Below are positions 12,899 to 64,000 of a DNA stretch of 64,000 nt, piece after piece. Position numbers and translations under genes: made by a program. How positions within the stretch are numbered: position 1 is the first letter of the stretch; the number at the start of each line of letters is the position of its first letter. The notes beneath the pieces are model-generated. The model did no database searches, had not been told where the DNA came from, and saw only the letters and a program-made list of their open reading frames with translations. Source of the stretch: a virus; IMG/VR virus record IMGVR_UViG_3300042402_000989, positions 2,379 to 66,378 of that record; one strand, written 5' to 3'.

Positions 12899-12927
12899 TT
12901 GACAAACTGATAATAAATAGTTATAGT
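12899..12927 (+). promoter_or_regulatory. Sigma70-type promoter TTGACA-N17-TATAGT with AATAAATA embedded in the spacer
   Basis: TTGACA at 12899-12904, TATAGT at 12922-12927, AATAAATA at 12912-12919, RBS AAGGAG at 12941-12946. Confidence 0.7.
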
Positions 12928-12954
12928 AGCAGTTAATTATAAGGAGAAACTCGC

Positions 12955-13302
12955 ATGGATGAGAGGCTCGAAAAAGCTCTAGACTTCGCAAATTATCGAC
13001 AAACATTAGCAAATCAAAAACGTAACATTCGTAGCAGAATGCAAATGTTACAAATGGTTCATTATAACAACGGAAGTTTTTTAGCTGATGCTGTTACAAT
13101 CGGGCTTGTTAACGGGTTGTTAACAGCTAACAAAAAAAGTGCTATTCTATTAGACACAAAAGAAACTCCGGTTAAAATTGAAGATTTGACAGATTTTCTT
13201 AATTTGCTTATTGAAAAATATACCGAAGCAACAAACGAATATCTAACATTGTTAGATAAAGTAAACAAGGCAAGAAATATTAAGAAATTAATGGACTGGT
13301 AA
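12955..13302 (+). CDS. Hypothetical phage protein (first gene of the modification island)
   Basis: 115-aa ORF with strong RBS; overlaps the next gene by 1 nt. Confidence 0.7.
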   Translation: MDERLEKALDFANYRQTLANQKRNIRSRMQMLQMVHYNNGSFLADAVTIGLVNGLLTANKKSAILLDTKETPVKIEDLTDFLNLLIEKYTEATNEYLTLLDKVNKARNIKKLMDW

Positions 13303-14204
13303 TGAGTGAAGAAGAAAACGGTATATGCATGTTTGCATATAACAATAGTCAAATTGATTATGTTAAAATAGCTCACATTGCAGCCGCATATGTTAAGCAA
13401 AATATGAAAAATAACTCTGTAACATTGATTACAGATAATGGTACGTATGATTGGTTAAAAGAATCAACAAACAAAAAATGGCACAGTCAGTGCTTTGACA
13501 ATGTTGTTATTCAGGATGTTGAACACAAGTCTAATCCACGAAAGCATTACGACAGTCCGTGGACTGAATTTAATGCCCAATTTAGTAACAGCAACAAACA
13601 CGACATTTTTCAACTTTCTCCGTATAACAAAACATTATTAATCGACACCGATTATTTTATACAAAACAATTATTATGATTTCTTGTTCGAAAGTTCGACT
13701 CCATTGGCGTTGCATCGAGATGCAATATATATGGAAGGACAACGACCGTATATGAACGAATGTGACTTAAACGAAACAGGAATTCACCACTGGTGGTCTA
13801 CGGTAGTATATTTTGACAAAAGTGACGAAGCAGAATTGTTTTTTGATATATGGTCACATGTAAAAGACAACTGGGATTATTACTATTTGTTATATCAATT
13901 CCCACCTGCGCTATTCCGAACAGATTTTTGTGTTAGCATTGCTGCACATTTAATGAACGGCTTTACAAATGAATCATTTGTCGAAGGTCTGTCAATACCA
14001 TTACTCAACATGGATCAAAAGGATGATTTGATAGAGGTTAAAGACACAAATGATCTGATTATGTTAAGCCATAATAGAAAAGAGCCTTGGAAGAATATTC
14101 TTGTTAGATTAGAAAATACAAATATACACGTTATGAATAAAAGGGCAATCAGTAGACACGCCGATCTTTTTATTGAAAAATTACAGGCAAAATTTAATGT
14201 CTAA
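13302..14204 (+). CDS. Glycosyltransferase-like protein (GT-A fold, GT8-like)
   Basis: SPYNKTLLIDTD DxD motif; W-STVVYFDKS segment; paralog of the next gene. Confidence 0.65.
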   Translation: MSEEENGICMFAYNNSQIDYVKIAHIAAAYVKQNMKNNSVTLITDNGTYDWLKESTNKKWHSQCFDNVVIQDVEHKSNPRKHYDSPWTEFNAQFSNSNKHDIFQLSPYNKTLLIDTDYFIQNNYYDFLFESSTPLALHRDAIYMEGQRPYMNECDLNETGIHHWWSTVVYFDKSDEAELFFDIWSHVKDNWDYYYLLYQFPPALFRTDFCVSIAAHLMNGFTNESFVEGLSIPLLNMDQKDDLIEVKDTNDLIMLSHNRKEPWKNILVRLENTNIHVMNKRAISRHADLFIEKLQAKFNV

Positions 14205-15066
14205 AGGTTTCGTTACACTCGGTATTAATACCGATAAAGATATGATAAAATACAGCTACGGCCTTGCACTAAGTATCAAAGCCAGTGACCCAACTGCAGA
14301 AACTTGTCTTATTGTAGACAACGGTAAATCAGACTTAGTGCCATCAAAATACTTTCATGCTTTCAATTATATAGCAGAGCTTCCATTTGGTAACACAGCT
14401 CACAAAGATGGCTTTCATGGCATGAATCTTTGGCAACTTATACATGCTACACCATTTGATGAAACAATTTACGTAGACTATGATACAGTATTCAATAATG
14501 TAAACGTTGAGTTACTATGGGATCAGATGACTGCTAATTCGAACGGATTTGCAGTCTCTAGTTTGTCAAGAACATTTAGAAACACAGTTATTAATTACAA
14601 TCAGTATTTTGATATTGAACTGCATTACAATTTACCTACAAATTTTAATAATTTAATATATTTTGATCGCAATTCACCATTAGCCATTGAATGGTTTAAA
14701 ATGGCGGATCCAGTTTTCCAAAATTGGAGAAGCGTGTATAGTAAATTGTTGAACGACAAAAAACCACTGACCTTTGATAAAAATGTATTAGCAAATATTG
14801 TAACACATTTATTAGATGTAAGTAGTGAAATAACTGTTAGCTTGAACAACTTGTACGATTTAGATTTAAGAAGCCAAGGGTTATGGAATGAAGATATACC
14901 GATAAATTGGACAGAAATGTTAAACCATTGGTATACCGACGACGAGAAGTTGATTATCGAAAATTATGTTATTAATTCGGGCATCATTCACTATCACGAT
15001 AAGTCGTTTTTAACAGAAGATATTATAGATGTCATTAGAGCCAAGATTAATTCAAATAGTAGATGA
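14197..15066 (+). CDS. Glycosyltransferase-like protein (GT-A fold, GT8-like)
   Basis: TPFDETIYVDYD DxD motif; C-terminal IIHYHDK; start taken at ATG 14197. Confidence 0.65.
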   Translation: MSKGFVTLGINTDKDMIKYSYGLALSIKASDPTAETCLIVDNGKSDLVPSKYFHAFNYIAELPFGNTAHKDGFHGMNLWQLIHATPFDETIYVDYDTVFNNVNVELLWDQMTANSNGFAVSSLSRTFRNTVINYNQYFDIELHYNLPTNFNNLIYFDRNSPLAIEWFKMADPVFQNWRSVYSKLLNDKKPLTFDKNVLANIVTHLLDVSSEITVSLNNLYDLDLRSQGLWNEDIPINWTEMLNHWYTDDEKLIIENYVINSGIIHYHDKSFLTEDIIDVIRAKINSNSR

Positions 15067-16042
15067 GGGTAAATCTTTACCCAAGTACTATGTATATTAC
15101 GACGACTGGACAGGTGAGATCAAAAGTATCACCGGTAAATACAAACAGCAAATTTATCCCTACATTATAACAGAAGATGAAACTGCTGCAAAATTAATGA
15201 TGGGCATTTTAAATCCTAAAAAATATGTGGTGAGTGATTTCGTAGACGAGATGAAACTGTTACCAAAATCAGACGTACTTGCTATTAAAAAAGCTGAGGA
15301 AATTTTAACTAAAATACCTAGAGTAAAAAACTTTATAGATAGTGATGTTAATGTTATTTTGTATACAAATGATTATAGAATGGAAATTAACTTAAATCAA
15401 GATACTATCTATAGAATGACAGGTAAACGATTTAACAATCGTTACGACACTGCTGAAACATCAGCTGATAGTTACTTAGTATTGTATCTTATCAAAAAGA
15501 ACAATCCAAACCATCTATTAGAAACGATAAAAATCAAAGTAAAAGATATTGTGACAACCGGTTACACCATCTTAGATTTAGCGCACTTGCAAAATATACT
15601 CGACTTCGCAAATATAGACGTGTTGACAAGACGAATTTTTAAAAATTATGGCTTGAAAATAAAACAAAACTATGTTAACATAGATTATCATACTAGACGA
15701 AGCAACAAGAGAACACACACTACAATTCATGAGTCAACTGACGACTGGAGCACATTTTCAATTAGTCCGTCGACTGAAGGTTGGATTATCAAAAGTAATT
15801 TTGCCAATCCGCAAGAACAAAAAATATACAGAGATCTTAAGATTTTTTTAACAGGCAATGATCCTAATATACTGCTTGACAAGATAATTATACCTTACGA
15901 TCAAATCGGCAATTTTAAAGAATACATAGTAAAGACTACGATAGATCCTACTACTTGTAAATTATTATTAGGCGAAGAAGGCAAAAATATAACTTTTAAA
16001 TTTGAGGAAATTGAATATGTCAAATCTGGTAAGTATAAATGA
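15029..16042 (+). CDS. Hypothetical protein within the glycosyltransferase cluster
   Basis: 337-aa ORF overlapping both neighbours; no recognisable catalytic motif. Confidence 0.6.
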   Translation: MSLEPRLIQIVDEGKSLPKYYVYYDDWTGEIKSITGKYKQQIYPYIITEDETAAKLMMGILNPKKYVVSDFVDEMKLLPKSDVLAIKKAEEILTKIPRVKNFIDSDVNVILYTNDYRMEINLNQDTIYRMTGKRFNNRYDTAETSADSYLVLYLIKKNNPNHLLETIKIKVKDIVTTGYTILDLAHLQNILDFANIDVLTRRIFKNYGLKIKQNYVNIDYHTRRSNKRTHTTIHESTDDWSTFSISPSTEGWIIKSNFANPQEQKIYRDLKIFLTGNDPNILLDKIIIPYDQIGNFKEYIVKTTIDPTTCKLLLGEEGKNITFKFEEIEYVKSGKYK

Positions 16043-16994
16043 TTTTGATATTGTCTACATTAGCTACGACGAGCCTAATGCAGATGAAAACTACGCAGAC
16101 TTATTAACTAAATGTCCTTGGGCTAAACGTAGTCATGGTGTATGGGGCAGTGATGCTGCACACAAAGCGGCCGCTGCGTTAAGTGAAACTGAAAGATTCG
16201 TTACAATCGATGCCGATAACATTGTTAACGAAGATTTTTTTAATGTTGAAATTGACATGGACAGAGTTCGTAGTAACGATGTTATTAGTTGGGCTGCTCG
16301 TAATCAGATCAACGGGTTAATATACGGCAACGGCGGCATTAAATGCTGGCCTGTTGATGTGGTAATGCGTATGCGAACACACGAAGCAGCGCCTCCCACT
16401 GATAAGCGGGCGCAAGTAGATTTCTGTTGGAATATTCACTACGTTCAAATGAATAACTGGTATAGTCATGTGTACAACAACGGCAGTCCATTGCAAGCAT
16501 GGCGTGCAGGTTTCCGTGAAGGTGTAAAAATGGGATTAGAAAACGGTGATGTGGTTGATCCTAGTAAACTTAAGAAAATTCATAGAGAAAACTATAAGCG
16601 TTTGTTAGTTTGGATGAGTGTAGGCGAAGATGCACCAAACGGTTTGTGGGCTGTATACGGCGCAAGATTGGGATGCTATATGACAAATATATTGCGTCAT
16701 GAATGGGACTGGAAAAACGTTAGAGACTTCGATTGGTTAAGCAATTACTTTAACACAGAACTAGCACCCCAATTTGAAGATGGAACAGAACTTTGCCCAC
16801 GTACAGGATACAATTGGGATCCGATCAAATTAAAAGCAGAAACAGTAAGACTTGGTAATGAATTAAGAAGTAACCTTGATCTTGAAATTGCTGATTTAGA
16901 TTGGTCCGGTAGCCGCTTCTTTAAAACAACTTATAAAAATCCTGCAAGACTTGGCGCTATGATAAAAGAAACCGAAGTAGTAGATACAATATGA
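16017..16994 (+). CDS. Glycosyltransferase-like protein (GT-A, DAD motif)
   Basis: ISYDEPNADENY, AHKAAA, TIDADN, NGLIYGNGG, AWRAGFRE; paralog of 35932..36645; start ATG 16017 follows GAGGA. Confidence 0.65.
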   Translation: MSNLVSINDFDIVYISYDEPNADENYADLLTKCPWAKRSHGVWGSDAAHKAAAALSETERFVTIDADNIVNEDFFNVEIDMDRVRSNDVISWAARNQINGLIYGNGGIKCWPVDVVMRMRTHEAAPPTDKRAQVDFCWNIHYVQMNNWYSHVYNNGSPLQAWRAGFREGVKMGLENGDVVDPSKLKKIHRENYKRLLVWMSVGEDAPNGLWAVYGARLGCYMTNILRHEWDWKNVRDFDWLSNYFNTELAPQFEDGTELCPRTGYNWDPIKLKAETVRLGNELRSNLDLEIADLDWSGSRFFKTTYKNPARLGAMIKETEVVDTI

Positions 16995-17629
16995 TAACTA
17001 GTGACGATTTTGAGAAAATCTTAGCAATACCAGGGTACATGTCATACGATAAGTTGTTAGCACTCAGTAATATAGTAAGCAACAAAAAAAACGTAAAAAC
17101 GGTGGTTGAAGTTGGGTCATACTGCGGCCGAAGTTCGGTTTGTATGGCAATGTCTCTCGACAGCACTGTTAATATTAATTGTATAGATCATTTTAATACA
17201 AATCGAGTTGCAGGTGGCATTTATGCAGATGGCAAAGATGGTAGACCCCTCGTAGGGGAAAGCATGAATCAATTTGATGAGTTCAAAAAACACACAAGCA
17301 ACTATAAAAATATAAAAATGATATCAGGACATTGTCCTTATGACGTAACATGGTCAGGCGAGGACATTGATATTTTTTTCTTAGATTCAGATCACAAAAA
17401 CCCCGAAGACTTCGATATTCTGTCTTATTTTTGTAGTTTTATGAAAACTGGCGGAATAATTATAGGAGACGATCATCTAGAAGATTACATCCACGGGCGT
17501 AACGTTATCGAAAATGTTAAAATTCTAGAAAATGCGTATGGGGTTAATGCACAATTCTTTGGCGATAGAAAAGATTTGTGGCTAATTGAAGTTACGAAAG
17601 ATAATATCTGTTTAAAGGAATATGTATAA
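16991..17629 (+). CDS. Class I SAM-dependent methyltransferase (Methyltransf_24-like)
   Basis: VEVGSYCGRSS motif I, IDHF, DIFFLDSDH, GGIIIGDD. Confidence 0.8.
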   Translation: MITSDDFEKILAIPGYMSYDKLLALSNIVSNKKNVKTVVEVGSYCGRSSVCMAMSLDSTVNINCIDHFNTNRVAGGIYADGKDGRPLVGESMNQFDEFKKHTSNYKNIKMISGHCPYDVTWSGEDIDIFFLDSDHKNPEDFDILSYFCSFMKTGGIIIGDDHLEDYIHGRNVIENVKILENAYGVNAQFFGDRKDLWLIEVTKDNICLKEYV

Positions 17630-17632: not shown

Positions 17633-19201
17633 ATGTCAGGAACATTAGAAGAATATGGACTTGCAAACTTAACTTTTGCAGACAACAGCGAGCAAAATGT
17701 AAATAAAGTCAAATCATTGTTAAATTCTACCGGCTGCGGGTTTTGTTTAGCTAAATTTAGGCAAGTAACACTACATTTAGGTACAGGAATGACACACTCT
17801 TGTCATCACCCATCTCCACATAAGATCGAACTAGCTGAAATAAAAAATAATCCTGCTGCACTATTCAATACTAAAGTTTTGAAGTCTGCCAGAAAACAAA
17901 TGTTAAATGGGGAGCGCCCAGATGAATGTGACTATTGTTGGAGGGTTGAAGACAATGATGGTATTAGTGATCGATTTTATAAAAGTTTAGAACCATGGGC
18001 ATTGCCAGATCACAATAGTATTACACAGTTAACGGGTGATGAAGATATATATCCTCGATATTTAGAAGTAAGTTTTAACAATGCATGTAATTTAAAATGT
18101 GTTTATTGTGGTCCCGAATTTAGTAGTAAATGGGTAGAAGAACTTAAACAGTACGGCCCGCTGAAAGTACTAGAAGGCACTAAAGATGAAAAATGGGTAC
18201 AAGGGTTTCAAGACCTTGACTCTCTAAATTATAAAAATCGAGAATTTAATCCTTATGTTGATGCATTTTGGAAATGGTTCCCAGAGGCTAGTAAACACTT
18301 AAAGCATTATCGTATCACCGGCGGTGAACCGTTAATGAGCAAAGAAACATTTAAAAGTATGGATTTGATAATTGAAAATCCAAACCAAGAGTTGGAATTT
18401 AGCGTAAATAGTAATCTCAGTGTACCCGAACAACTGTGGGAACCGTTTATCGAGAGACTTAAAATAATAGCTGACAATAAATTGGTTAAGAAGTTTACAG
18501 TGTATACTAGTGTAGAAGGCTGGGGCGAACGTGCCGAGTATGCCAGGACTGGGTTGAATTTCAACTTGTTTAAAAAACGAGTTGAGTTTCTAGCAGCTAT
18601 GAACAATGTTAGAGTTGTTGTAATGGCAGCCTTTAATATGTTTAGTATTACCAGTTTTGACAAGTTATTAGATTGGATCTACAAATTAAAATTAGAACAT
18701 AATCCGTGTAACTTTGCTGCAACATTAGAAGAAAAAACTGGTTTCAACGTTGCACCTGCAAGAGAATATCTAGATAGGAAAAAACTAAATCCTAGTCATA
18801 GTGTAACCGTTGGTATAGATATACCGTATCTGCGGCATCCTACTATGCTAGATATACATTTCTGCACACATCAACTGTTAGAAGATTATCTGTTTAAGTG
18901 TGTAGAATTTATGGCTGCACGAACTAAAAATGATTCATGGACATATCCTGGTGGATTCGAATCATATGAAGTTGAAAAAATGAAACGTATTGTAATGCAC
19001 AGACTGTATTATAATGAAAAAAATAAACCAGAAAGAGATTCGGGGGAAGATATCATACGCAATCGTGCAGAGTTTTACGAATTTATCAACGAAATGGATA
19101 AACGACGCAATACCGACTTTCTAAAAACATTTCCAGAAATGACAGAATTCTATGAAGAATGCAAACGTTGCAACATAGTGTATTATAACAATGCAAAATA
19201 A
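17633..19201 (+). CDS. Radical SAM protein with N-terminal Twitch/SPASM-like Cys domain
   Basis: CNLKCVYC, ITGGEP; N-terminal FCLAK..SCHHP..ECDYCW. Confidence 0.9.
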   Translation: MSGTLEEYGLANLTFADNSEQNVNKVKSLLNSTGCGFCLAKFRQVTLHLGTGMTHSCHHPSPHKIELAEIKNNPAALFNTKVLKSARKQMLNGERPDECDYCWRVEDNDGISDRFYKSLEPWALPDHNSITQLTGDEDIYPRYLEVSFNNACNLKCVYCGPEFSSKWVEELKQYGPLKVLEGTKDEKWVQGFQDLDSLNYKNREFNPYVDAFWKWFPEASKHLKHYRITGGEPLMSKETFKSMDLIIENPNQELEFSVNSNLSVPEQLWEPFIERLKIIADNKLVKKFTVYTSVEGWGERAEYARTGLNFNLFKKRVEFLAAMNNVRVVVMAAFNMFSITSFDKLLDWIYKLKLEHNPCNFAATLEEKTGFNVAPAREYLDRKKLNPSHSVTVGIDIPYLRHPTMLDIHFCTHQLLEDYLFKCVEFMAARTKNDSWTYPGGFESYEVEKMKRIVMHRLYYNEKNKPERDSGEDIIRNRAEFYEFINEMDKRRNTDFLKTFPEMTEFYEECKRCNIVYYNNAK

Positions 19202-20675
19202 AGAAACCCCGATACAATGGCGAGATAGAGTACTAAACGCTAAAAGCAAAAGTTTTTGCGGCGCAAAATGGTATAATGCAACAATATGGCTAGGTAATGG
19301 TGCAACTACAAGTTGTCACCATCCTCCTTCTCATAAAATAGATCCAGAAGAAGTAAAACACAATCCAAGTGCATTACATAATACTACATACAAAAAACTA
19401 GTAAGAAAGCAAATGCAAGAGGGCATTCAAACTAAAGAGTGTGATTATTGCTGGAAAATAGAAAATTTAGACAACAACTTAATAAGCGATAGATTTTACA
19501 AAAGCGAGTTATATAGTGAAGAAGATTTACAAGCTGCATTTGATGCGGATTGGCGACAAGATTTTAACCTGAAAACACTAGAAATTGCGTTTGACAACAA
19601 TTGTAATTTTGCATGTAGCTATTGTAACGCAGGGTTTAGTACAACCTGGGCGCATGATGTTAATAAAAATGGTACATACAAAAATCTTTGTAGCGACGGA
19701 TGGGGTGCATTTAGCACCAACGGTAAATGGGCTAGCCCATACGGATCTAAAAACGAAAACAATCCATTTATTGAAGCATTTTGGAAGTGGTGGAACGCTG
19801 AATTACAACACAGTCTTTACCAATTGAGAGTAACTGGCGGAGAAGCAACTGTAAGTAATGATTTCTGGAAGTTAGTAGAATGGTACGAAAATAATCCAAC
19901 TTGCAAAGTACGTCTCGGGGTCAACACAAATCTCGGAGTTAAAAAAGCTGCATTAGATAGACTTATTAAACTCAGCCATTCTGGCGTTAAGTTAGATATG
20001 TATACTAGCAACGAATCTATGTTAAGTCATGCTGAATACATACGAGACGGGTTAATATGGAACGAGTGGGATAACAATTTTAGACGTTTAATTAGCGAAT
20101 CTGCTGTAAGCTACATACACATAATGTGTACAGTTAATGCGTTGTGCCTCGGTAGCTTGGATAAGTTTTTAGAGTATGTTATTGACCTGAGGGAAAATCA
20201 CAATCCCAATAATATGGAAATCACTACTAGTATGAATATACTGCGATTCCCAAGTTTTCAAAGTATTACAACTTTACCAAAATACATCAGAGAAGAGCGA
20301 GCAGCACATTATAGAAACTGGTTATCTAATTTTAAATCAAAGCTAATGGACCACGAAATCGACAGTATAGAACGTACTATACAATATATAGAACATATAG
20401 AAAGTGGTCACAGTGTTAAAACACTAAGTGATGTCGATATCAGACAAAATGATTTCTACAATTTCTACACTCAGTATGACAGCCGCAGAAACAAAAATAT
20501 CAAGGAATCGTTTAACGATTGGCCCGAATTAATAGAATGGTTTGATACTAGAAAAAACAATAGCAACGAAAACCCAGTAAAAGATATAATTCAAGCGGAC
20601 GCCACTGAGTGGGGAGAAGACATTCAAAAAGAAGTGTTTGCTGCCGCTCGTGATAACAAACTAATTAACGAATGA
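19191..20675 (+). CDS. Radical SAM protein with N-terminal Twitch/SPASM-like Cys domain
   Basis: CNFACSYC, VTGGEA; N-terminal FCGAKW..SCHHP..ECDYCW; paralog of the preceding gene. Confidence 0.9.
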   Translation: MQNKETPIQWRDRVLNAKSKSFCGAKWYNATIWLGNGATTSCHHPPSHKIDPEEVKHNPSALHNTTYKKLVRKQMQEGIQTKECDYCWKIENLDNNLISDRFYKSELYSEEDLQAAFDADWRQDFNLKTLEIAFDNNCNFACSYCNAGFSTTWAHDVNKNGTYKNLCSDGWGAFSTNGKWASPYGSKNENNPFIEAFWKWWNAELQHSLYQLRVTGGEATVSNDFWKLVEWYENNPTCKVRLGVNTNLGVKKAALDRLIKLSHSGVKLDMYTSNESMLSHAEYIRDGLIWNEWDNNFRRLISESAVSYIHIMCTVNALCLGSLDKFLEYVIDLRENHNPNNMEITTSMNILRFPSFQSITTLPKYIREERAAHYRNWLSNFKSKLMDHEIDSIERTIQYIEHIESGHSVKTLSDVDIRQNDFYNFYTQYDSRRNKNIKESFNDWPELIEWFDTRKNNSNENPVKDIIQADATEWGEDIQKEVFAAARDNKLINE

Positions 20676-54461: not shown

Positions 54462-55144
54462 AACACGTTTGTTTTGAAAATGTTATTCCTGTAGAAGTTT
54501 GTGAATACATTAGAAACTTCTTTGAGACTAGAACAGATTTACATGTTATCAAACCTAATAATCCAAATGTTATTAAAATAAATCACCCATGGCGTCATTT
54601 AAAAGAAATATTAGATCCGGTATTCTCAAAATACTTTACTACTAATAATGGCAACGGTGGGAACATTTATAAACATACAAACGTATACACTACGCATGTA
54701 GACAGTTTTGAAACACATCAGATGATTAATGCAATGATACCTATATATGCACCGCCAAGCGATGAGCAGCAACATTTTGTTGTATTTGACCAATGGGTAG
54801 ACAACGGGTTTGGTCAAACATGGTATGGAGACAGGAACGATATTGCTGACCATGGAGACTTTGATTATAATAAAAAGCTAGCACAGACTCCGTATAATGA
54901 TCCACGTGTGTATGATAAAGTTGAAGATGATATAAGCAATGACTTTTATCGCAATTACTTAGATGCAAACTGTCACAAGACAGAATATTTTAAAGGGTTA
55001 ACAGGTGCAGCATATCCGTTTGTACCAGGACATTTGATATTGTTTAACTCTAATCAATTGCATACTACAGGTAAGTTAACAAGTGACTGGAAGATGGGAC
55101 TGCATATTAACTTTGATGGAAGTTTGGAAGAATTACTAGTATGA
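54458..55144 (+). CDS. 2OG-Fe(II) oxygenase-like (DSBH) protein
   Basis: THVDS (HxD), MIPI, FNSNQLHTT distal His, K.GL. Confidence 0.6.
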   Translation: MKHVCFENVIPVEVCEYIRNFFETRTDLHVIKPNNPNVIKINHPWRHLKEILDPVFSKYFTTNNGNGGNIYKHTNVYTTHVDSFETHQMINAMIPIYAPPSDEQQHFVVFDQWVDNGFGQTWYGDRNDIADHGDFDYNKKLAQTPYNDPRVYDKVEDDISNDFYRNYLDANCHKTEYFKGLTGAAYPFVPGHLILFNSNQLHTTGKLTSDWKMGLHINFDGSLEELLV

Positions 55145-57325: not shown

Positions 57326-58579
57326 ATGAATGACAAAGTACTAAAATGCAAATATGCATGGAGCCATTTAGATTTCCTCCAGGGTCAATATGGTCCATGC
57401 TTTCGCTATAAAGTAAACAAACAACCTATAGCTAAGGTATCGGAGAAACTTCCAAGCGAAGTTATTAATAGCGAAGAAATGCAATCTGTCAGACGTAGTT
57501 TACAGCAAGGAGTGTTTCCCCCCGGTTGTTTTGATTGTGCTTTAAAAGAAGGTAGAGGTCTGAAATCATACAGACAACAAGTAATGGAACATCATTGGGA
57601 AGATGAAGATAAAATAAATTATAATTCTGCAGTTGTCGATAGGATATTAGATTTAGAACTAAAGTTTAGTAGAACATGTAATTTTTTATGCAGACATTGT
57701 TACTCTGAATCAAATAGCATGTTTGAAGTAATAGGTAAAAAACATCCAGACATTCATAACAAACTATTAACACAAGGATTTGACCAATTTGGTATAGCAG
57801 ATTCACCCATAACAGAAGTCTCAGAAGAAGTAATAGATGATCTTGTTAATAATGTAATACCCGATTGTAAGAACATCAGATTTAGTGGCGGTGAGCCGCT
57901 ATATCATTTGCAGCACTATCAGTTTTTAGAAAAGTTAATTGATTCTCCTAATATTGATACTAAATCACTCAGTTTATTTTATAATACAAATTTAAGCATG
58001 ATACAGTTTAAAGATTATAATCTTAATAAATTATGGAAGAATTTTAAATCAATATACGTTGTTGTTAGTTTAGACGGCACTGGTAGTTTGTTTAACTATT
58101 TCAGAGAACGTGGCGATTATGACACTGTAATTAACAACATAGAAACCTTAGCACAAACATCTACTAATATAGAAAGTTTTTTGTTTGTATGTACATCTAC
58201 TGCATACCAGGCGTTTTATGCAGATGTGATATTTAGAGATTTAACAGCACTAGCCGAACGAATACAACGTGAGTATAACATACATTGTACAACAAAGCCT
58301 ACCTTTGTTCATTCAGCTAACATCGATATGGTAGATCTGGAAGTCGAAACGAAACAGTTTATAATCGGCAATTTAGAGAAAACGTTACCGTCGGGAAATA
58401 ATATGTATGATTATGCGATAAAAGAAATAATCACACATCTCGAAGGCGATAAAAGAAACTTCAATGGCGATTTCAAAGAAATAGTAAAATTACAAGATCA
58501 ACTATATGAAAAGGATGCGTTTGCGATGGCACCCAGAGTAGCTGAGTATGTATATAATAATACGTTAACATGGATTTAG
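57326..58579 (+). CDS. Radical SAM protein with N-terminal Twitch/SPASM-like domain
   Basis: CNFLCRHC, FSGGEP; N-terminal CKYAW..PCF..CFDC. Confidence 0.88.
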   Translation: MNDKVLKCKYAWSHLDFLQGQYGPCFRYKVNKQPIAKVSEKLPSEVINSEEMQSVRRSLQQGVFPPGCFDCALKEGRGLKSYRQQVMEHHWEDEDKINYNSAVVDRILDLELKFSRTCNFLCRHCYSESNSMFEVIGKKHPDIHNKLLTQGFDQFGIADSPITEVSEEVIDDLVNNVIPDCKNIRFSGGEPLYHLQHYQFLEKLIDSPNIDTKSLSLFYNTNLSMIQFKDYNLNKLWKNFKSIYVVVSLDGTGSLFNYFRERGDYDTVINNIETLAQTSTNIESFLFVCTSTAYQAFYADVIFRDLTALAERIQREYNIHCTTKPTFVHSANIDMVDLEVETKQFIIGNLEKTLPSGNNMYDYAIKEIITHLEGDKRNFNGDFKEIVKLQDQLYEKDAFAMAPRVAEYVYNNTLTWI

Positions 58580-58580: not shown

Positions 58581-59732
58581 ATGAATAATACACTGTGTAG
58601 TTCGGCTTGGACCGATATTAATTTAGACTTTGCTAGTAGGTCAATACGTCATTGCTGTAAAAGTCTAGAGGTACCGTTCCCTGAAACGTTAACTGTTGAT
58701 TTTTTTAATAATAGTAAAAGAATAAATCAAACCAGAACAGATTTATTAAATGGTATAGAATCACCTGATTGTGTACGTTGTTGGGATGATTACAAGTTAA
58801 CCGGCAATGCATACAGAGACTTCAAGAATGAATGGAACTCGAATTCGCAAGTTAATAATAAGATTGAATTTATAGAGATATTCTTAGATAACCTATGTGA
58901 CATGTCGTGCATTTATTGTGATGAAATTGCTAGCAGTAAAATAGCATCCGAGAAAAAAGTTAATAATCCAAAAAATGCTAATTTTGACGAAGACTTAAAA
59001 GTATTTGTTGAATTTTTAGAAACAGTTGCTAAACAGCAAGATGACATTAATTTAAGTTTTTTAGGTGGCGAAGTCACATACAGTAAAAAGTTTTTTTATT
59101 TTGTAGAACAATTACTAGAAAATGACATACTGTTAAAAAGTAACGTAAACTTTAGCATATTAACTAATTGTAATAGTAGTGACGCTGCTATGCTAAAAAC
59201 AATCACACTGTTTAATAAAATGCCAGAACATTGGCATGTTCATGTGAGTATAAGCAACGAGTCAACAGGTGATGTAGCAGAATTAGTCAGATACGGATTG
59301 TCTTGGGATAGATTTTTAAGAAATTTTAAAATGTATTACCAACACAGAAAAGTAAGGTCGTTATTAATTGCACCAACACTATCTATATTCACTGTTAAAA
59401 CATTCCCTGATTTTATTAAAACTATAACAGATATAATAATAGAATTAGGGAATACTAAGCCATTTAAAGTGACTGGTAATTGGATATTGGAACCAGAAAT
59501 TTTAAATCCAGTGTATGCTAAGGCAGAGTATAAAGCTAGTGTCAATGACTTGAAAAATTTTGTAATTGGTAGTGATGTTATTAGTAATGCAAATTTTATA
59601 ACATTTTTAGAAAAGTTAGAACACAGAATAGGTTCGATAGAATTAGATTACAACAGGTTGGATGAGTTTTTAGAAGATTTAGTGGAACAAAAATCCGACA
59701 ATAACATATGGAAATTAAAAGATTTACTATAG
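58581..59732 (+). CDS. Radical SAM protein with N-terminal Twitch/SPASM-like domain
   Basis: CDMSCIYC, LGGEV; N-terminal CSSAW..HCCK..CVRC; paralog of 23157..24431. Confidence 0.88.
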   Translation: MNNTLCSSAWTDINLDFASRSIRHCCKSLEVPFPETLTVDFFNNSKRINQTRTDLLNGIESPDCVRCWDDYKLTGNAYRDFKNEWNSNSQVNNKIEFIEIFLDNLCDMSCIYCDEIASSKIASEKKVNNPKNANFDEDLKVFVEFLETVAKQQDDINLSFLGGEVTYSKKFFYFVEQLLENDILLKSNVNFSILTNCNSSDAAMLKTITLFNKMPEHWHVHVSISNESTGDVAELVRYGLSWDRFLRNFKMYYQHRKVRSLLIAPTLSIFTVKTFPDFIKTITDIIIELGNTKPFKVTGNWILEPEILNPVYAKAEYKASVNDLKNFVIGSDVISNANFITFLEKLEHRIGSIELDYNRLDEFLEDLVEQKSDNNIWKLKDLL

Positions 59733-59767
59733 CGGAAATAAATAGTATTATAACAAGGAGTCCTCCA

Positions 59768-60400
59768 GTGATTTTAGAACATATAGACATCAAGAAAGCA
59801 GTTATCAGAAGTCAGCACTGCCAAAGAAATTTCGACTTAACAAACGAAATTCCAGAGCAAGATGTAGAAACATTAGTGTATGCTGCAACAAACTGCCCAA
59901 GTAAGCAAAACATTGCATTTTATAATTTGCATGTCATTAAAGATAGATCAATAATTGAGCGTGTGCATGATTTGGCACCAGGTACACATGCATACAATGA
60001 AGCAGGCGAAATGATTGCAACCACTAATAGTCAAGTATTAGCAAACGTTATATTTGTATACGAACAACTAGAACTGTCAGATCTTACTGAACGTGGATTT
60101 ACTAAGTGGCAAAATGCAGACGAGTCTGATATCGAAACATTTAAGCGTGATCGTGCAACTGCGATTGGCATTGCTAGTGGTTATGTTAACTTAACTGCAA
60201 GTATGTTAGGTTACAGCACAGGTTGCTGCCAGTGTTTCTTAGCACATGATATTAAAGAATATCTGGGCTTAAAGAACAATCCAGCAATGATTCAAGGTGT
60301 TGGTTTTAAGGATGCATCACGCAATCGTAGACTGCACGAAAAGAACGGATTAATTTTCCCTACACGTAAAAAAGAAGCAATTGTAACAACTTATAGATAA
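59768..60400 (+). CDS. Nitroreductase-family flavoprotein
   Basis: RSQHCQRNFD, AATNCPSKQN, AIGIASG..L.A..LGYSTG; GTG start after AAGGAG (59755-59760) and AATAAATA (59737-59744). Confidence 0.75.
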   Translation: MILEHIDIKKAVIRSQHCQRNFDLTNEIPEQDVETLVYAATNCPSKQNIAFYNLHVIKDRSIIERVHDLAPGTHAYNEAGEMIATTNSQVLANVIFVYEQLELSDLTERGFTKWQNADESDIETFKRDRATAIGIASGYVNLTASMLGYSTGCCQCFLAHDIKEYLGLKNNPAMIQGVGFKDASRNRRLHEKNGLIFPTRKKEAIVTTYR

Positions 60401-60405: not shown

Positions 60406-61476
60406 ATGTCTGACAATATTCGGCCTTTTTGTGTCGCACCGTGGGCAAGTATTCGTTACGGTGCGTTACTTCATGGAGGAGGAGTGACTCCTTGTTGCGA
60501 ATGGAGAGGCGATACGTTTAACGGTTCTTTAGAATCTTATTTTAAGAGTGAGTTATTAGAACATATTAAACATGCAATGATAACTCACAACTATTCACTT
60601 TTAAATGAATCGTGCGAAACTTGTATTTCTTTGGAAACCTTAAACATAACATCTACCAGGCAACAACTGCATAATAAGAAATTAGCGATTTCCGACGGGT
60701 TGCGTATAATTGATTATCGACCTAGCAATTTATGCAACTTGAAATGCAGAATGTGTTTTGCTGGCAGTAGTTCATTGATTGCAAAAGAAGAGAATAAAAA
60801 AATAACACAATTCGATACAAGTGATATCTATTCGATGGATTTTACAAATTTATGTCAATTAAAGGTTCTTGGCGGCGAACCTACTATTTCAGATGATGTA
60901 ATCAATCTATTGAACTTTTTAGTAAAAAACAATTTCGCTAAAAATATTGATCTTATGTTTACTACTAACGCAACAAACGCAACTAAGAAATGGATGGATT
61001 TAATTAGTAAGTTCAGAAATTGTTTTGTAGTTATAAGTTTAGATGGCATCGGTAAAGTTTATGATTATATCAGAACTAATGCTAATTGGAGTAGTGTTTT
61101 AAAAAATGTTGAAATATACGAACAAAGTGATTTAGATGTGTTTTTTCAAATAACTGCGTCAATGTATAATATGCCTGTTGTAGAAGATTGGATTGAATGG
61201 TTTTTTAATAAAACAAACGTAGATATATATCCAGTGGAAGGACGACCTGAATTAACGTTAGCTGCATTGCCAGATGATATAAGACAAGAAAAAATTGATT
61301 ACCTAAAAAAGTTTAATAATAAAATAACAAATGACGCAATAGCTATATTGTCTGCAGATCGGTTTGATAAATCAATACATGATAAATTTAAAAATTATAC
61401 ATATACTAAAGATAAAATAAGAAACACTAATATATTAGACGTGTCTCTTGTATATGAAAGAGTTATGAATATATGA
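60406..61476 (+). CDS. Radical SAM protein with N-terminal Twitch/SPASM-like domain
   Basis: CNLKCRMC, LGGEP; N-terminal FCVAPW..PCC..CETC. Confidence 0.9.
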   Translation: MSDNIRPFCVAPWASIRYGALLHGGGVTPCCEWRGDTFNGSLESYFKSELLEHIKHAMITHNYSLLNESCETCISLETLNITSTRQQLHNKKLAISDGLRIIDYRPSNLCNLKCRMCFAGSSSLIAKEENKKITQFDTSDIYSMDFTNLCQLKVLGGEPTISDDVINLLNFLVKNNFAKNIDLMFTTNATNATKKWMDLISKFRNCFVVISLDGIGKVYDYIRTNANWSSVLKNVEIYEQSDLDVFFQITASMYNMPVVEDWIEWFFNKTNVDIYPVEGRPELTLAALPDDIRQEKIDYLKKFNNKITNDAIAILSADRFDKSIHDKFKNYTYTKDKIRNTNILDVSLVYERVMNI

Positions 61477-62012
61477 TAATAACAGGTAATAAAAACAAAG
61501 GTATAGCAAAAGAACTGCTTGCAATATACCCTAATGCTACATTCTGCAGTAGAGAAACCGGTTATGATCTTGTTGCTAAAGAAGGTAGGGAACAATTTGC
61601 TAACGAAGCTATAAATCATGACATTATAATACTTAATTCTGCACTATGGCAGTTCCAACAAACTGTACTACTAGATACAGTATACAAGGCACTCATTAAT
61701 GCTAATAAAACAGCATATATTGTATGCATTGGTAGTACAACCGATCGAGTTAACAAAGGTACAAGTTGGCTTTATAATGCAGAGAAAAAAGCGTTGCGTG
61801 ATTACTGTAATAGTTTAAGTTTGTTAGGTGTATGGAATGGTGGACCAAGAGTCTCTTATATTAGCTTTGGAACGTTGTCTAACAACCAGCATAAGCACCT
61901 GGATCGTGCGTGTATGGATATATCTATTGCAGCAAACTATATAAAATGGGTAATAGATCAGCCTATTCATATTAATGAAATTAGCTTAGATCCGATACAA
62001 CCCTCTCAATAA
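61473..62012 (+). CDS. Short-chain dehydrogenase/reductase (SDR)-like protein
   Basis: IITG...GIA, ILNSA, IGS, YNAEK (YxxxK). Confidence 0.75.
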   Translation: MIITGNKNKGIAKELLAIYPNATFCSRETGYDLVAKEGREQFANEAINHDIIILNSALWQFQQTVLLDTVYKALINANKTAYIVCIGSTTDRVNKGTSWLYNAEKKALRDYCNSLSLLGVWNGGPRVSYISFGTLSNNQHKHLDRACMDISIAANYIKWVIDQPIHINEISLDPIQPSQ

Positions 62013-62033: not shown

Positions 62034-63476
62034 ATGTTAGATTTATTAATTTGCATCATACCTAAGATTAATCCAGATGCACCGACTGTCGGGCCTGCGG
62101 TATTAAAATCACATTGTGAAGCAGCAGGGTTTTCGTGTGAAGTAGTAGACTTTAACATTAAACTGTATAATGAATTAAAAAACAAAAACAAGGATAATTT
62201 ATACTTTAAAGACGATGCGTTGTTTGCAATAGAACATACTGCACCAGATTTAACGCCGGACTTTGAATTATTTTATAATGAGTTTGAATATGTGTTTCTA
62301 GATTGGATTGAATTAATCAAAAGAAAGAATCCACGTGTAATCGGATTAAGTTTGCTAACAATTTTTAGTTTAGGTGTAGCAACACGCCTAGGGGAATTAA
62401 TTAGAATTCACATACCTGATCTCAAAATATTATGGGGCGGTGCTGCAGTTGAATGGGGTATCGACGTTTTTAAAGAGCGCAACTTACTTGACGATTATAT
62501 CTTCGGCGACGGTGAGTTGAGTGTAGTTGAATATCTCAAAGGTAATATGAATTACAAAGGCATAAACAGCTTAGATGTAAATCAAATTAATAATTTAAAC
62601 GAAATATTGTTACCTAATTATGATGATATCAACTGGGATGAATATTATGATATGGATGGAGATTTGCCCGTCTATATCACTGGTAGTAGAGGGTGCGTCA
62701 AACGTTGCACGTTTTGTAACGTCTTTGATGTTTGGCCAGACTTTAGATATCGCAGCGGTAAAAATATTGCAAGCGAGATTATTAGTCTTAAAGAACGATA
62801 TAACAGATACACGTTTAGATTTACTGATAGTTTGATCAATGGCAGTATGAAAGCGTTTAGAAATTTAATGACAGAGTTAATCGAGTACAGAACGATAAAC
62901 GACACATTCGGTTGGAGTAGTCAATGGATTATTCGTTCTAAAAGTCAAAGTCCCGAATCGGACTATGCAAACATGAAAAAAAGCGGTTGTGCTATGTTAG
63001 AAATTGGGCTAGAATCATTTAGTCAAAGAGTACGATATCACATGGGTAAAAAGTTTTCAGATTCTGATATGTGGTGGTGTTTGGAGCAGTTAAACAAATA
63101 TAAAATACCCCATGTATTATTAATGATTACTGGTTATCCAACAGAAACCGAAGAAGATCATCAAACTACATTGCGATCAGTTAGAAAAATATATGAAATG
63201 AATTGGAAATATACAACATTTAGTTTTGGTAATACACTAATGCTATCAAATGCACAACCATTGTATAAATTAATCGAAGACGACTTAGAATATTTTAATA
63301 GTAACGTTGATTGGAAGTATAAAGATAACGATTTAAAAACACGAGTCCGTCGGTTTAACGAGGTCAATGGTTTAATAAGTGAGTTAACTAATCAGCCCGA
63401 GTTGTACTGGATGAATGAAAGGGCAATTCAGAATCATAATAGTGCAATTGAAAACAAGGATGTTAGAATTACTTAA
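62034..63476 (+). CDS. Cobalamin-binding radical SAM protein (class B methyltransferase-like)
   Basis: B12-binding N-terminus; GSRGCVKRCTFC; GLESFS; TGYPTET; close paralog of 55141..56577; AATAAATA at 62008-62015. Confidence 0.88.
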   Translation: MLDLLICIIPKINPDAPTVGPAVLKSHCEAAGFSCEVVDFNIKLYNELKNKNKDNLYFKDDALFAIEHTAPDLTPDFELFYNEFEYVFLDWIELIKRKNPRVIGLSLLTIFSLGVATRLGELIRIHIPDLKILWGGAAVEWGIDVFKERNLLDDYIFGDGELSVVEYLKGNMNYKGINSLDVNQINNLNEILLPNYDDINWDEYYDMDGDLPVYITGSRGCVKRCTFCNVFDVWPDFRYRSGKNIASEIISLKERYNRYTFRFTDSLINGSMKAFRNLMTELIEYRTINDTFGWSSQWIIRSKSQSPESDYANMKKSGCAMLEIGLESFSQRVRYHMGKKFSDSDMWWCLEQLNKYKIPHVLLMITGYPTETEEDHQTTLRSVRKIYEMNWKYTTFSFGNTLMLSNAQPLYKLIEDDLEYFNSNVDWKYKDNDLKTRVRRFNEVNGLISELTNQPELYWMNERAIQNHNSAIENKDVRIT

Positions 63477-63557
63477 CGATTGTCAGCTGTTATAATTTTT
63501 AATTTTACCTGCATTGTGTTCCATAGTAATATTTATTGGTATTAAATACATACACAA

Positions 63558-63585
63558 TTGACAAATATCTAGATGGTGTTATAAT
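63558..63585 (+). promoter_or_regulatory. Sigma70-type promoter TTGACA-N16-TATAAT with extended -10 (TGn)
   Basis: TTGACA at 63558-63563, TG at 63577-63578, TATAAT at 63580-63585; ATG at 63592. Confidence 0.75.
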
Positions 63586-63591
63586 ATAACT

Positions 63592-64000
63592 ATGACTGAA
63601 GATTTAAAATGGAGCAACTATGACTTTACCAAAATCCCGTTTGACGACATTGTTCAAGTCGGCCAGCGGACACTCTTATATAGAGACTTATTTACTGTAT
63701 CTTGGCTCCTTGGCAGATACTGCAACTACAGATGCTCCTACTGTTGGCCGTATGCCAGATCTAACACCAAAGATCATAGACCTACAGAACTATGCTTCAA
63801 AACGATCGACGAAATAAAGCGTCAAGCTCGTGATAACGGCTTTAATAGCTTTCATTTTTCTTTATCTGGCGGTGAGCCTACTTTTCACCCTGGTTACTTG
63901 GACATTCTCAAATATCTTGCCGATGATGTTTCTAATACTAATTATACTAGTATTCATATGACATCTAATTGCTCAAGACCTGTTAAATGGTTTGAGCAAT
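63592..64000 (+). CDS. Radical SAM protein, 3'-truncated by window end (not in ORF track)
   Basis: Own translation: MTEDLKWSNYDFTKIPFDDIVQVGQRTLLYRDLFTVSWLLGRYCNYRCSYCWPYARS...FSLSGGEPTFHP...MTSNCSR. Confidence 0.88.
   Translation, partial: MTEDLKWSNYDFTKIPFDDIVQVGQRTLLYRDLFTVSWLLGRYCNYRCSYCWPYARSNTKDHRPTELCFKTIDEIKRQARDNGFNSFHFSLSGGEPTFHPGYLDILKYLADDVSNTNYTSIHMTSNCSRPVKWFEQ

Follow-up and report, generated by a model that had tools for sequence, protein, structure and literature searches.

A hypervariable island rich in radical SAM genes beside the virion genes of a freshwater jumbo phage, a candidate locus for glycan assembly and tailoring

What would a large phage do with 20 radical S-adenosylmethionine (SAM) enzymes encoded among glycosyltransferase-like proteins, directly downstream of its virion genes? 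The question is raised by a 64,000-nucleotide stretch of viral DNA (hereafter the window, meaning the whole stretch that was analyzed), which comprises bases 2379-66378 of the linear, 66,378-bp IMG/VR virus record IMGVR_UViG_3300042402_000989 and is tiled by 59 listed open reading frames (ORFs) of at least 80 aa, numbered g01 to g59. The island in question begins with g05 at position 12955 and runs to the window end. The answer that we favor, at a probability of roughly 45%, is that a freshwater jumbo phage uses this hypervariable island to assemble and tailor a carbohydrate (glycan), with its acceptor unproven. Gene content, folds, a split between core and cassettes, hypervariability and a conserved promoter were observed, and from these we infer the substrates, the product and the acceptor. 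A carbohydrate pathway is favored because of the density of radical SAM genes, the four GT-A-type proteins of the core and the solved relatives of the tailoring enzymes. Features lie on the + strand unless stated otherwise.

The radical SAM motif CX3CX2C occurs in exactly 20 ORFs, the number given in the initial annotation, and in none of the remaining 39. Amino acid composition would lead one to expect 0.125 sites, and 1000 within-protein shuffles gave a mean of 0.136 proteins with the motif and a maximum of two. All 20 proteins match the Pfam model Radical_SAM (PF04055), 16 of them above its gathering score of 29.5 bits. Among those below it, g12, g14 and g42 still count as radical SAM proteins because they pass the NCBIfam model NF033640, and g35 does so because it is a 32%-identical paralogue of g16. 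All-against-all BLAST sorts the 20 proteins into an 11-member family (g11-g15, g42, g44, g49, g53, g54 and g56; mutual identity 19-31%), the pairs g16/g35 and g51/g58, the trio g36/g45/g59, and the singles g19 and g25; the total is thus made up of 11 N-terminal-twitch, two B12-dependent and seven other enzymes.

The 11-member family corresponds to NF033640 (N_Twi_rSAM). Nine members score 210-414 bits, against a cut-off of 170, while the divergent g15 and g54 stand just below it at ~161 bits. Along the window the family comprises g11 (17633..19201; 312.5 bits), g12 (19191..20675; 275.7 bits, 31% identical to g11), g13 (20691..21980; 344.5 bits), g14 (21980..23152; 296.4 bits), g15 (23157..24431; 160.6-160.8 bits), g42 (46446..47846; 414.5 bits), g44 (48659..50029; 349.2 bits), g49 (53310..54461; 235.9 bits), g53 (57326..58579; 229.8 bits), g54 (58581..59732; 161.5 bits) and g56 (60406..61476; 210.1 bits). 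In an alignment of all 11 proteins, four N-terminal cysteines (C10, C28, C93 and C96 in g42 numbering), the CX3CX2C motif and a GGE motif are invariant, the cysteines being kept in g15 and g54 as well; because of this invariance, all 11 look catalytically intact. The auxiliary-cluster domain precedes the radical SAM core, with Pfam SPASM matches at about residues 5-100 in g13, g14, g42 and g49, whereas the twitch domain of BtrN is C-terminal.

As for the chemistry of this family, NF033640 is a named subfamily without assigned function, and a literature search found no paper on it. Viperin and MoaA are its next-best NCBIfam sequence families. No PDB sequence match was found for g42; an AlphaFold (AF2) model of g13, with a predicted local distance difference test score (pLDDT) of 88.1, has MoaA, BlsE and viperin-like cores as its nearest structures in Foldseek, at expectation values (E) of 1e-5 to 4e-5. 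MoaA, BlsE and viperin-like enzymes all act on nucleotides or nucleoside sugars. CteB, anSME, SuiB and EpeE also match the g13 model, and the first three of these are close behind the top matches. A profile search of 1.84 billion cluster representatives for the family gave 6480 at E 1e-30 or better, some of them tandem-fused and 800-1100 aa long, and many relatives of 790-1466 aa contain two or three full-length matches, that is, tandem fusions of N-terminal-twitch units. Cellular homologues at 30-37% identity occur in Bacteroidota, Bdellovibrionota, a Synechococcus and others; among 91 neighbors at 15 cellular loci there are seven radical SAM genes, six PhyH dioxygenase genes and five genes of glycosyltransferase (GT) family 2 (GT2), a neighborhood that is suggestive but not decisive. 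In one 'Elusimicrobia' metagenome-assembled genome (MAG), ten short contigs (L096, L105, L114, L120, L122, L124, L129, L139, L149 and L155) each carry an N_Twi gene, and these look like such a phage binned into a bacterial genome.

The other radical SAM enzymes differ in domain arrangement. A C-terminal SPASM domain accompanies the Pfam Radical_SAM match in g16 (24428..25579) and in g25 (32363..33283; Radical_SAM E 8.3e-16, SPASM E 3.9e-8), and the g16 paralogue g35 (41205..42302; Radical_SAM E 2e-6) is of the SPASM type, with orthologues at 63-65% identity in the related records G001, G003 and G005. In g19 (27205..28386), SPASM at residues 39-99 stands ahead of Radical_SAM at 153-289, and the protein is distant from the N_Twi family (NF033640 68.9 bits). 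Small radical SAM proteins are encoded by g36 (42302..43216; Radical_SAM E 2.9e-11), which is 31% identical to g45 and has weak matches to the STM4011 family and QueE, and by g45 (50010..50912; Radical_SAM E 9.9e-10), which matches the STM4011 family at E 2e-15, below the cut-off. The third member of their trio, g59 (63592..64000; Radical_SAM E 1.4e-11), is cut by the window end, and its full-length orthologue in G005 has 370 aa. Finally, g51 (55141..56577; B12-binding E 3.3e-10, Radical_SAM E 1.5e-15) and its 51%-identical paralogue g58 (62034..63476), with the same Pfam domains, are B12-binding enzymes; the best NCBIfam matches of g51 are B12-radical SAM lipid, P-methyl and C-methyltransferase families, none of which reaches its cut-off.

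Four of the four to five GT-like proteins that had been claimed are supported, namely the GT8-like g06 and g07 and the GT-A-fold proteins g09 and g28. Pfam and NCBIfam gave no glycosyltransferase matches among the island proteins, and the support for these four comes from more sensitive tests. For g06 (13302..14204) and its paralogue g07 (14173..15066; 16-21% identity to g06), a profile of their orthologues aligns with glycogenin-1, a GT8 enzyme, at E 1.1e-5; the alignment covers positions 15-120, including the DxD region, in which D115 and D117 are invariant and the DxD is common to both proteins. The nearest named Atlas clusters of g06, Mannosyl_trans3 and Glyco_transf_8 (score 0.96), are taken as a lead only.

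The AF2 model of g09 (16002..16994; pLDDT 87.7) has an N-terminal GT-A fold, with D70 and D72 invariant, followed by a helical C-terminal domain. Its best Foldseek matches are of the GT2 type (SunS at 5.5e-4, hyaluronan synthase, WrtF and TarS/TarP), and VIA-align superposes it on B4GALNT1 with Z 10.3 and a root-mean-square deviation of 3.0 over 139 residues. Its structural matches also include the viral proteins PBCV-1 A64R, mimivirus R699 and STIV A197. At least 7994 homologues of g09 are found in metagenomes, with identities of 70-96% across thousands of sequences. The GT-A-like g28 (35932..36645) is a 34%-identical paralogue of g09 with an invariant DxD and with orthologues at 46-70% in the clade.

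Gene-by-gene comparison with relatives separates a conserved core, consisting of g05, g06, g07, g09, g28, g29, g30, g35, g42 and g43 and often accompanied by g46, g51/58 and g59, from the genes around it. In compact relatives this core occupies ~10 kb; in the window, the inserted blocks g10-g27 and g31-g41 interrupt it, and more genes follow. Beside the proteins described above, the core includes g05 (12955..13302), a small protein with no family match and orthologues at 31-37% in the clade and in the Ralstonia phage RsoM2USA, and g30 (37579..37830), a small helical protein whose ~75 aa are evenly conserved in 56 distinct orthologues. The core protein g29 (36654..37592; orthologues 41-63%) has no Pfam match and no PDB match for its profile; among the named Atlas clusters, the closest to it (score 0.95) is a viral one in which 21% of members carry Methyltransf_31, so that likeness to a methyltransferase is a lead only. 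The core copy of the N-terminal-twitch family, g42, has orthologues at 67-88% and occurs in 88 IMG/VR contigs. Also conserved is g46 (50900..51829; orthologues 46-78%), possibly a pyridoxal phosphate-dependent enzyme on the strength of a transaminase match at E 0.046 and an S-x-S-K lysine motif seen by eye, again a lead only.

The turnover around this core is extensive. Positions 1-16986 of the window are collinear with G005 at 89.4% nucleotide identity, whereas 30.5 kb of the 51-kb island (60%) has no match in G005 at 75% identity or more, and several blocks have been moved or inverted. The variation reaches down to single genes: in contigs from two independent runs, the methyltransferase gene g10 (16991..17629; Methyltransf_24 E 3.2e-10), which is missing from G005 too, is swapped for 50 nt (joint 16997->17625). 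In two public runs the summed depth of g05-g09 is 8-10 times that of the stretch after 17.2 kb, and contigs diverge after position 16532 in four of four public runs. The viral loci collected yielded 300 distinct N-terminal-twitch proteins, which fall into 104 clusters at 50% identity; eight of the 11 window members are singletons, and the cluster of g42 (69 members) is large by construction because the loci were anchored on g42. Radical SAM enrichment itself persists in five long relatives (330 kb, 93% complete; 307 kb, 87% complete; 180, 139 and 103 kb), each with 12-23 Radical_SAM matches clustered in ~40-60 kb. As a whole, the island behaves like an exposed-glycan locus under diversifying selection.

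A minimal form of the island is present in a cultured phage. Among 50,697 phage records, the Ralstonia phage RsoM2USA gave the sole match for g06 and g09, and its ORFs 354 to 347 have the order g05, g06, g07, one extra gene, g09, a g11-type twitch radical SAM gene (ORF349, 33% identical to g11), g28 and g29. According to the relevant part of its description, the module comes after ORF355, the structural ORF356, the tail sheath ORF359 and the 2541-aa structural ORF361 (PMC8504454). Two further occurrences may be mentioned. The cultured, 255-kb Vibrio phage K566 carries three consecutive radical SAM genes with 22-27% identity to the N_Twi family (L081 14962-19364), flanked by unannotated genes and with PagP-like and NAD-salvage genes nearby. 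In L143, a 148-kb contig of a Haliscomenobacter MAG, homologues of g07, g09 (41%), g11, g27 (48%), g28 and g39 lie within 21 kb; either the island has a cellular version here or a phage contig was binned.

The island was said to lie directly after the virion genes, and the flanking genes agree. Ahead of it stand g01 (7..10068), encoding a giant virion structural protein of 3353 aa (phrog_10938 'virion structural protein', E 8e-214), and the virion-associated g02 (10046..10687; phrog_11259, E 2.8e-65), for which some of the matched records are annotated as structural protein. These are followed by the tail-fiber-like g03 (10699..11616), with several PHROG matches, some of them to tail fiber or tail families, and by g04 (11620..12891), the last gene before the island, which has no Pfam or PHROG match and is 92% identical in G005. 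Residues 1717-1746 of g01 (window 5155-5244) show a weak CBM_5_12 match (E 1.1e-4, below the cut-off). Synteny with tail genes, which the initial annotation had proposed to survey, holds in all four genomes that show what lies upstream (the window, G005, G001 and RsoM2USA), where virion genes are followed by the island. The link between the island and the tail genes is therefore positional, yet conserved.

The span from g05 to the window end is 98.6% coding and holds 55 ORFs, of which 52 are on the + strand and three on the - strand; 34 of the 54 junctions overlap, and 15 have gaps of 0-25 nt. The description of more than 50 kb of near-continuous, co-directional and overlapping genes is thereby borne out, and the co-directionality and overlaps suggest an operon-like translation coupling. 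The expected continuation past the window end is seen in G005, where the island extends ~6 kb beyond the point matching the window end: past the g59 orthologue lie seven more co-directional genes, including those for an SDR-like protein and an AMP-binding fragment. Beyond the end of the G005 island are genes for an ABC permease (BPD_transp_1 E 1.2e-26) and an aldo-keto reductase (E 1e-61), convergent to the island (L089 11603-13415), and further on a thymidylate synthase and a small NrdG-like radical SAM protein.

A sigma-70-type promoter, TTGACA-N17-TATAGT (12899..12927, +), ends 27 nt before the start codon of g05; position 12899, at which the initial annotation had started the island, is its -35 hexamer. 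In 12 of 15 relatives the hexamer pair recurs with the identical 17-nt spacing, 21-27 nt before the start codon of the g05 orthologue (11 with at most one mismatch, one with two). Since this site is conserved amid upstream regions that are elsewhere ~60-65% identical (the exception being a close relative, L092, at 113/120), it is taken to be a real promoter and the island to be its own transcription unit, separate from the upstream virion genes. The claim is limited to the conserved site before g05, and sigma-70-like sites with at most one mismatch are not enriched across the window (six on the + strand, where shuffled sequence gives 2.7 on average and eight at most). By analogy with T4-like phages, the host polymerase may transcribe the island early from this promoter. 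Additionally, a perfect TTGACA-N16-TATAAT lies at 63558-63585 (+), with just 6 nt between it and the ATG annotated for g59, so that g59 either starts at a codon further downstream or has an almost leaderless transcript; within g46, at 51333, there is another perfect consensus site.

For the tailoring enzymes, the closest relatives of solved structure belong to small-molecule and amino-sugar pathways. The clearest case is the O-carbamoyltransferase g27 (34309..35820; Carbam_trans_C E 1e-51, Carbam_trans_N E 2.2e-33), whose PDB matches, over the range E 2e-46 to 3e-35, are NovN-type (2.1e-46), GdmN and TobZ. The amidinotransferase g39 (43918..45141) matches HsvA (1.2e-11), SxtG (9.1e-9), AGAT and StrB1 in the PDB, through its C-terminal 60 residues. 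Together with g10 and the class I SAM methyltransferase g24 (31686..32384; Methyltransf_12/11/31/25 E 1e-8 to 1e-7), these matches uphold the carbamoyl-, amidino- and methyltransferases that had been named before. Furthermore, g26 (33285..34307) encodes a class I/II, HisC-like aminotransferase (PF00155 E 6.8e-39; PDB histidinol-phosphate aminotransferases E 1e-22), and g55 (59708..60400) is a nitroreductase-family flavoenzyme (PF00881 E 5.9e-11), as had been proposed.

The three QueC-like enzymes of the initial annotation were recovered as the PP-loop ATPases g41 (45592..46449; QueC E 1.6e-6, with N-terminal Asn_synthase and NAD_synthase matches), g43 (47843..48505) and g47 (51830..52567; QueC E 3.7e-4), g47 being 27% identical to g43. 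All three have an invariant SGGxDS motif and four invariant C-terminal cysteines (C193, C204, C207 and C210 in the g43 profile), and their likeness to QueC is confined to the C-terminal part; the profile of the core member g43 matches ThiI, asparagine synthetase and TtuA-type thiolase at E 2e-4 to 4e-4. Other assignments that had been made fared less well. Weak matches were all that was obtained for the kinase-like g22 (29940..30704; APH E 1.1e-3 and RIO1 E 2.2e-3, both below cut-offs), for the nucleotidyltransferase with a HAD-like domain g23 (30673..31704; NTP_transf_3 E 3e-3, and HAD-type matches) and for the SDR-like g57 (61473..62012; SDR models E 2e-3), where residues 3-212 of g23 also match the nucleoside-diphosphate-sugar pyrophosphorylase 4evw in the PDB, weakly, at E 3.3e-3. 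No profile match was found for the supposed sulfotransferases g31 (37855..38592) and g33 (40051..40680) or for the supposed 2-oxoglutarate oxygenases g48 (52564..53313) and g50 (54458..55144).

A transporter of the sodium:solute symporter family is encoded by g32 (38594..40054; PF00474 E 2.3e-22), with the DUR3 urea symporter as its best PDB match (E 3.4e-17); it may take up nitrogen in support of those tailoring steps that are rich in nitrogen (amidino, carbamoyl and amino). This gene is 91% conserved in G005.

Taken together, these genes would fit a pathway in three steps. Sugars would first be activated to nucleotide sugars. They would then be chemically edited, with the radical SAM enzymes acting at unactivated carbons and other enzymes adding amino, amidino, carbamoyl and methyl groups. 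Lastly, the four glycosyltransferases would transfer the edited sugars to an exposed acceptor. The core (GT8-like g06 and g07, GT-A-fold g09 and g28, g29, the small g05 and g30, g35, g42 and g43) would form the constant part of such a pathway, and the surrounding radical SAM enzymes, O-carbamoyl-, amidino-, amino- and methyltransferases, PP-loop enzymes, nitroreductase and possible kinase and nucleotidyltransferase would be swappable cassettes. Our guess for the acceptor is the virion proteins encoded next door, which are favored because both the position of the island and its transferases are conserved.

A bolder extension is that the N_Twi proteins are a large family that edits carbohydrates or nucleotide sugars and is shuffled by jumbo phages as cassettes, giving an ever-changing, exotic particle glycan, a radical-driven 'glyco-code' without a characterized counterpart in phages or cells. 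The scale of shuffling rests on the more than 100 N_Twi types at 50% identity, drawn from a small sample of one clade, and we consider this extension doubtful.

Several points weigh against a glycan pathway. No sugar-nucleotide synthesis enzyme is confidently identified in the window, the kinase and nucleotidyltransferase matches lying below cut-offs, and Pfam scans of the window proteins were negative for GT-B enzymes, flippases, polymerases and lipid-carrier enzymes. The GT-A fold of g09 also lies near the nucleotidyltransferases IspD and MobA (VIA-align Z 8-9), so that the fold alone leaves the activity unfixed, and it is from the DxD that g09 is predicted to be a glycosyltransferase. SPASM/twitch radical SAM enzymes are best known for peptide modification. 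At the cellular loci inspected, NF033640 is mostly a single gene in varied contexts, as against 11 copies in 44 kb of the window. About 20 of the 55 island proteins have no family match in Pfam or NCBIfam. The conserved promoter separates the island from the virion genes, and adjacency need not mean a common function. With cassettes turning over in this way, moreover, the island may be a collection of independent functions instead of one pathway. The proposal of the initial annotation, a phage pathway that builds and decorates a glycan, thus stands as regards the phage, the radical SAM density, the core glycosyltransferases and the relatives of the tailoring enzymes; a single 55-gene pathway, in an island of which close relatives differ in 60%, and virion proteins as the acceptor go beyond these findings.

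The first alternative concerns the host surface. Here, the enzymes would remodel O-antigen, capsule or other envelope glycans, either blocking superinfection or altering the cell during a long infection. This is the function proposed for the GT8-rich hypervariable island of pelagimyophages, with its radical SAM cassettes, in the passages of PMC7029224 devoted to it. A sigma-70-type promoter would fit early expression by the host polymerase, a timing deduced from the promoter type, and the transporter g32 shows an interaction with host physiology. However, flippase, polymerase and lipid-carrier glycosyltransferase genes went undetected in the window, as did any export gene in the same Pfam scans, and it is the four GT-like genes that form the conserved part of the island, whereas acceptors among host glycans would be expected to vary by host. 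Remodeling of the host surface is therefore considered unlikely.

The same turnover that suggests diversifying selection could instead mark a zone of accretion, in which independent cassettes for counter-defense, metabolism or nutrient uptake have settled beside a small conserved glycosyltransferase module and do not make up one pathway. Replacement or rearrangement of 60% of the island between phages with an 89% identical flank, the presence or absence of g10 as a single gene, and the confinement of RsoM2USA to the minimal module all agree with this, as do unrelated functions such as the DUR3-like symporter and, at the far end in G005, the ABC permease and aldo-keto reductase. Set against it, translation coupling is suggested by the common direction of 52 of the 55 ORFs and by the overlaps at 34 of the 54 junctions; the cassettes come repeatedly from the same few classes (radical SAM, PP-loop, methyltransferase); and radical SAM enrichment recurs in five relatives. 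On balance, we hold mere accretion to be improbable.

The product might also be a diffusible small molecule, aminoglycoside-like, nucleoside-like or another tailored metabolite, that acts on the host or on competitors. O-carbamoyl-, amidino- and aminotransferases, a B12-radical SAM methyltransferase-like enzyme and twitch radical SAM enzymes occur together here, a combination that recalls aminoglycoside and nucleoside antibiotic clusters. BlsE, from blasticidin S biosynthesis, is among the structures nearest to the g13 model, and similar genes in a cyanophage are interpreted as antibiotic synthesis genes in the passage of PMC12801897 on that phage. Yet Pfam scans detected no scaffold-forming enzyme (cyclitol synthase, non-ribosomal peptide synthetase or polyketide synthase), in this respect the stretch past the window end in G005 offers only a fragment-sized AMP-binding protein, neither an exporter nor a self-resistance gene was detected, and a conserved core of four glycosyltransferases agrees better with a glycoconjugate. 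A small-molecule pathway thus seems quite unlikely.

SPASM and twitch domains are typical of peptide maturases, and the radical SAM enzymes could modify a peptide or protein directly, yielding a product like the RiPPs (peptides that are synthesized by the ribosome and modified post-translationally) or non-glycan side-chain changes on virion proteins. Weak NCBIfam matches to sactipeptide, ranthipeptide and other maturases, and the CteB, anSME, SuiB and EpeE structures among the matches of the g13 model, point the same way; ATE_C-like transferases, nitroreductases and B12-radical SAM enzymes are also known from RiPP pathways. All the maturase matches, however, are far below family cut-offs, Pfam scans were negative for leader peptidases, RiPP recognition elements and exporter families, and no precursor-like gene was found, although smaller ORFs were not screened systematically. 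As a RiPP precursor, g30 is ruled out by its even conservation in 56 distinct orthologues, with no variable core segment. A cysteine-rich ORF of 59 aa (48502..48681; eight cysteines, CxxC...CxxCxCxxC; its ATG overlaps the g43 stop codon) is ruled out as a conserved gene by the lack of a counterpart in the relatives examined, and it is perhaps a gene of recent origin, or no gene at all. Direct peptide modification is accordingly rated as decidedly improbable.

Hypermodification of the phage DNA with glycosylated or otherwise decorated bases, as an escape from restriction, would also fit early expression from a sigma-70-type promoter, which is typical of such enzymes, and known DNA-modification pathways include phage glycosyltransferases, QueC-like PP-loop enzymes, QueE-like radical SAM enzymes, kinases and aminotransferases. 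It is nevertheless very unlikely: TGT/DpdA (PF01702) is found in none of five related records, which include the 93% and 87% complete ones, by a search whose control was positive in 14 of 14 genomes, nor by Pfam scans in the window; QueD occurs in two of the five, outside the island; a thymidylate-synthase-type gene, as for the hydroxymethyl-pyrimidine route, occurs in two of the five, neither of them a near-complete genome; and the QueC matches cover the C-terminal part only, at 25 bits against a cut-off of 150, and the QueE matches are weak, so that the full-length QueC, QueD and QueE set for 7-deazaguanine DNA modification is lacking.

The source record, which is 17% complete by CheckV, represents part of a jumbo phage genome with relatives in the Rak2/GAP32 group. 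Both g02 and the middle of g01 match the same 93 phage records, of the Rak2/GAP32/CBB/BF/PA5oct type and nearly all jumbo phages of ~290-490 kb, at 25-46% identity (25-29% for g01, 42-46% for g02). A cellular or chimeric origin, which the initial annotation had named as a possible objection, does not apply: the record is viral and not chimeric, because it is an IMG/VR entry, because positions 1-16986 are collinear with G005 across the junction of virion genes and island, and because an independent contig (X4 record 16) spans 12616-13393 and thus bridges that junction. Fifteen studies, with 20 public runs between them, contain near-identical DNA; most of the runs are metagenomes of lakes, rivers and other fresh waters, the source sample perhaps among them, and no RNA run is listed. 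A marine habitat for this genotype is ruled out by these runs; the wider families of g09 and g13 do include Tara records. No tRNA and no Rfam family was found in the window.

The remaining island genes are mostly without family match. On the - strand, g20 (28373..28909), g21 (28902..29774) and g52 (56574..57278) are such genes, and all three are missing from relatives. The same lack of a family match holds for g08 (15029..16042), a variable gene found only in G005 among four records compared, for the variable g18 (26252..27208), which is missing from four records compared, and for g17 (25594..26358) and g40 (45098..45604), as well as for g31, g33, g48 and g50; the sole match of g34 (40685..41227) is to a methyltransferase at E 0.035. 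In NCBIfam, 16 of 20 unassigned island proteins have no match of any kind. Domains were found in g37 (43179..43625), which is ATE_C-like with a GNAT-type aminoacyl transferase fold (PF04377 E 9.7e-7), and in g38 (43635..43964), which carries DUF6614 (PF20319 E 5.3e-25).

Should the glycan reading be true, large aquatic phages would spend about one-sixth of their genome on a variable, heavily edited sugar structure, a new enzyme family with radical SAM chemistry that nobody has described would be available for study, and the hypervariable islands of several groups of large myophages, marine as well as freshwater, would find an explanation. Since a cultured phage carries the minimal seven-gene form, experiments on the question are within reach. 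If the cassettes are instead unrelated, the region would still illustrate clearly how accessory genes are kept and traded by jumbo phages.

How does this island compare with known systems? With aminoglycoside and nucleoside antibiotic tailoring it shares enzymes of the TobZ, StrB1, BlsE and BtrN type, inasmuch as the closest solved relatives of g27, g39 and the radical SAM core come from such pathways, and it differs from those pathways in that no scaffold-forming enzyme was detected in the window. Like the virion glycosylation systems of mycobacteriophages, chloroviruses and mimivirus, it has virus-encoded glycosyltransferases, here predicted ones. To our knowledge, radical SAM enzymes are not known in any of those three systems. 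In mycobacteriophages, glycans are carried on capsid and tail tube subunits, as summarized in part of PMC12619734; the moraphage lineage described there has four core glycosyltransferase groups, and radical SAM is never mentioned in the text. A brine-pool preprint deals solely with genes of the queuosine type.

Closer parallels are found among marine phages, and these qualify the earlier statement that no comparable phage system is known. Pelagimyophages and cyanomyophages are T4-like, with genomes of roughly 150-200 kb. Their host recognition cluster, as portrayed in the pertinent passages of PMC7029224, is a large non-syntenic island with a mean of 44.6 kb in pelagimyophages, which lies inside the structural region beside the giant VrlC gene, is rich in GT8 and is interpreted as modifying the host surface; radical SAM cassettes distinguish otherwise similar pelagimyophage genomes. 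By that description, the present island resembles it in its position after a giant structural gene, in the GT8-like g06 and g07 and in the turnover of radical SAM cassettes. It differs in belonging to a jumbo phage related to Rak2/GAP32 and in its 20 radical SAM genes, a number for which those passages offer no per-island counterpart; the pelagimyophage island also holds tail fibers, whereas between 12955 and 64000 no tail fiber family was detected with Pfam or PHROG, many ORFs there having no assignment. A 183-kb environmental genome of a marine T4-like virus has 12 radical SAM genes, discussed for the supply of Fe-S clusters (PMC5332604); it is like the present case in having many radical SAM genes of uncharacterized function, and the passage on it describes neither an island structure nor glycosyltransferases. 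The third case is a cyanophage that has an amidinotransferase as well as a radical SAM gene and that, in the section concerned, is described as carrying 'antibiotic synthesis genes' (PMC12801897). None of the pelagimyophage, T4-like marine and cyanophage cases is characterized. Relative to all of these, what is new here is the presence of 20 radical SAM genes in 51 kb, 11 of them in one uncharacterized family, together with the core-plus-cassette anatomy, the conserved promoter at the island start and the minimal form in a cultured phage.

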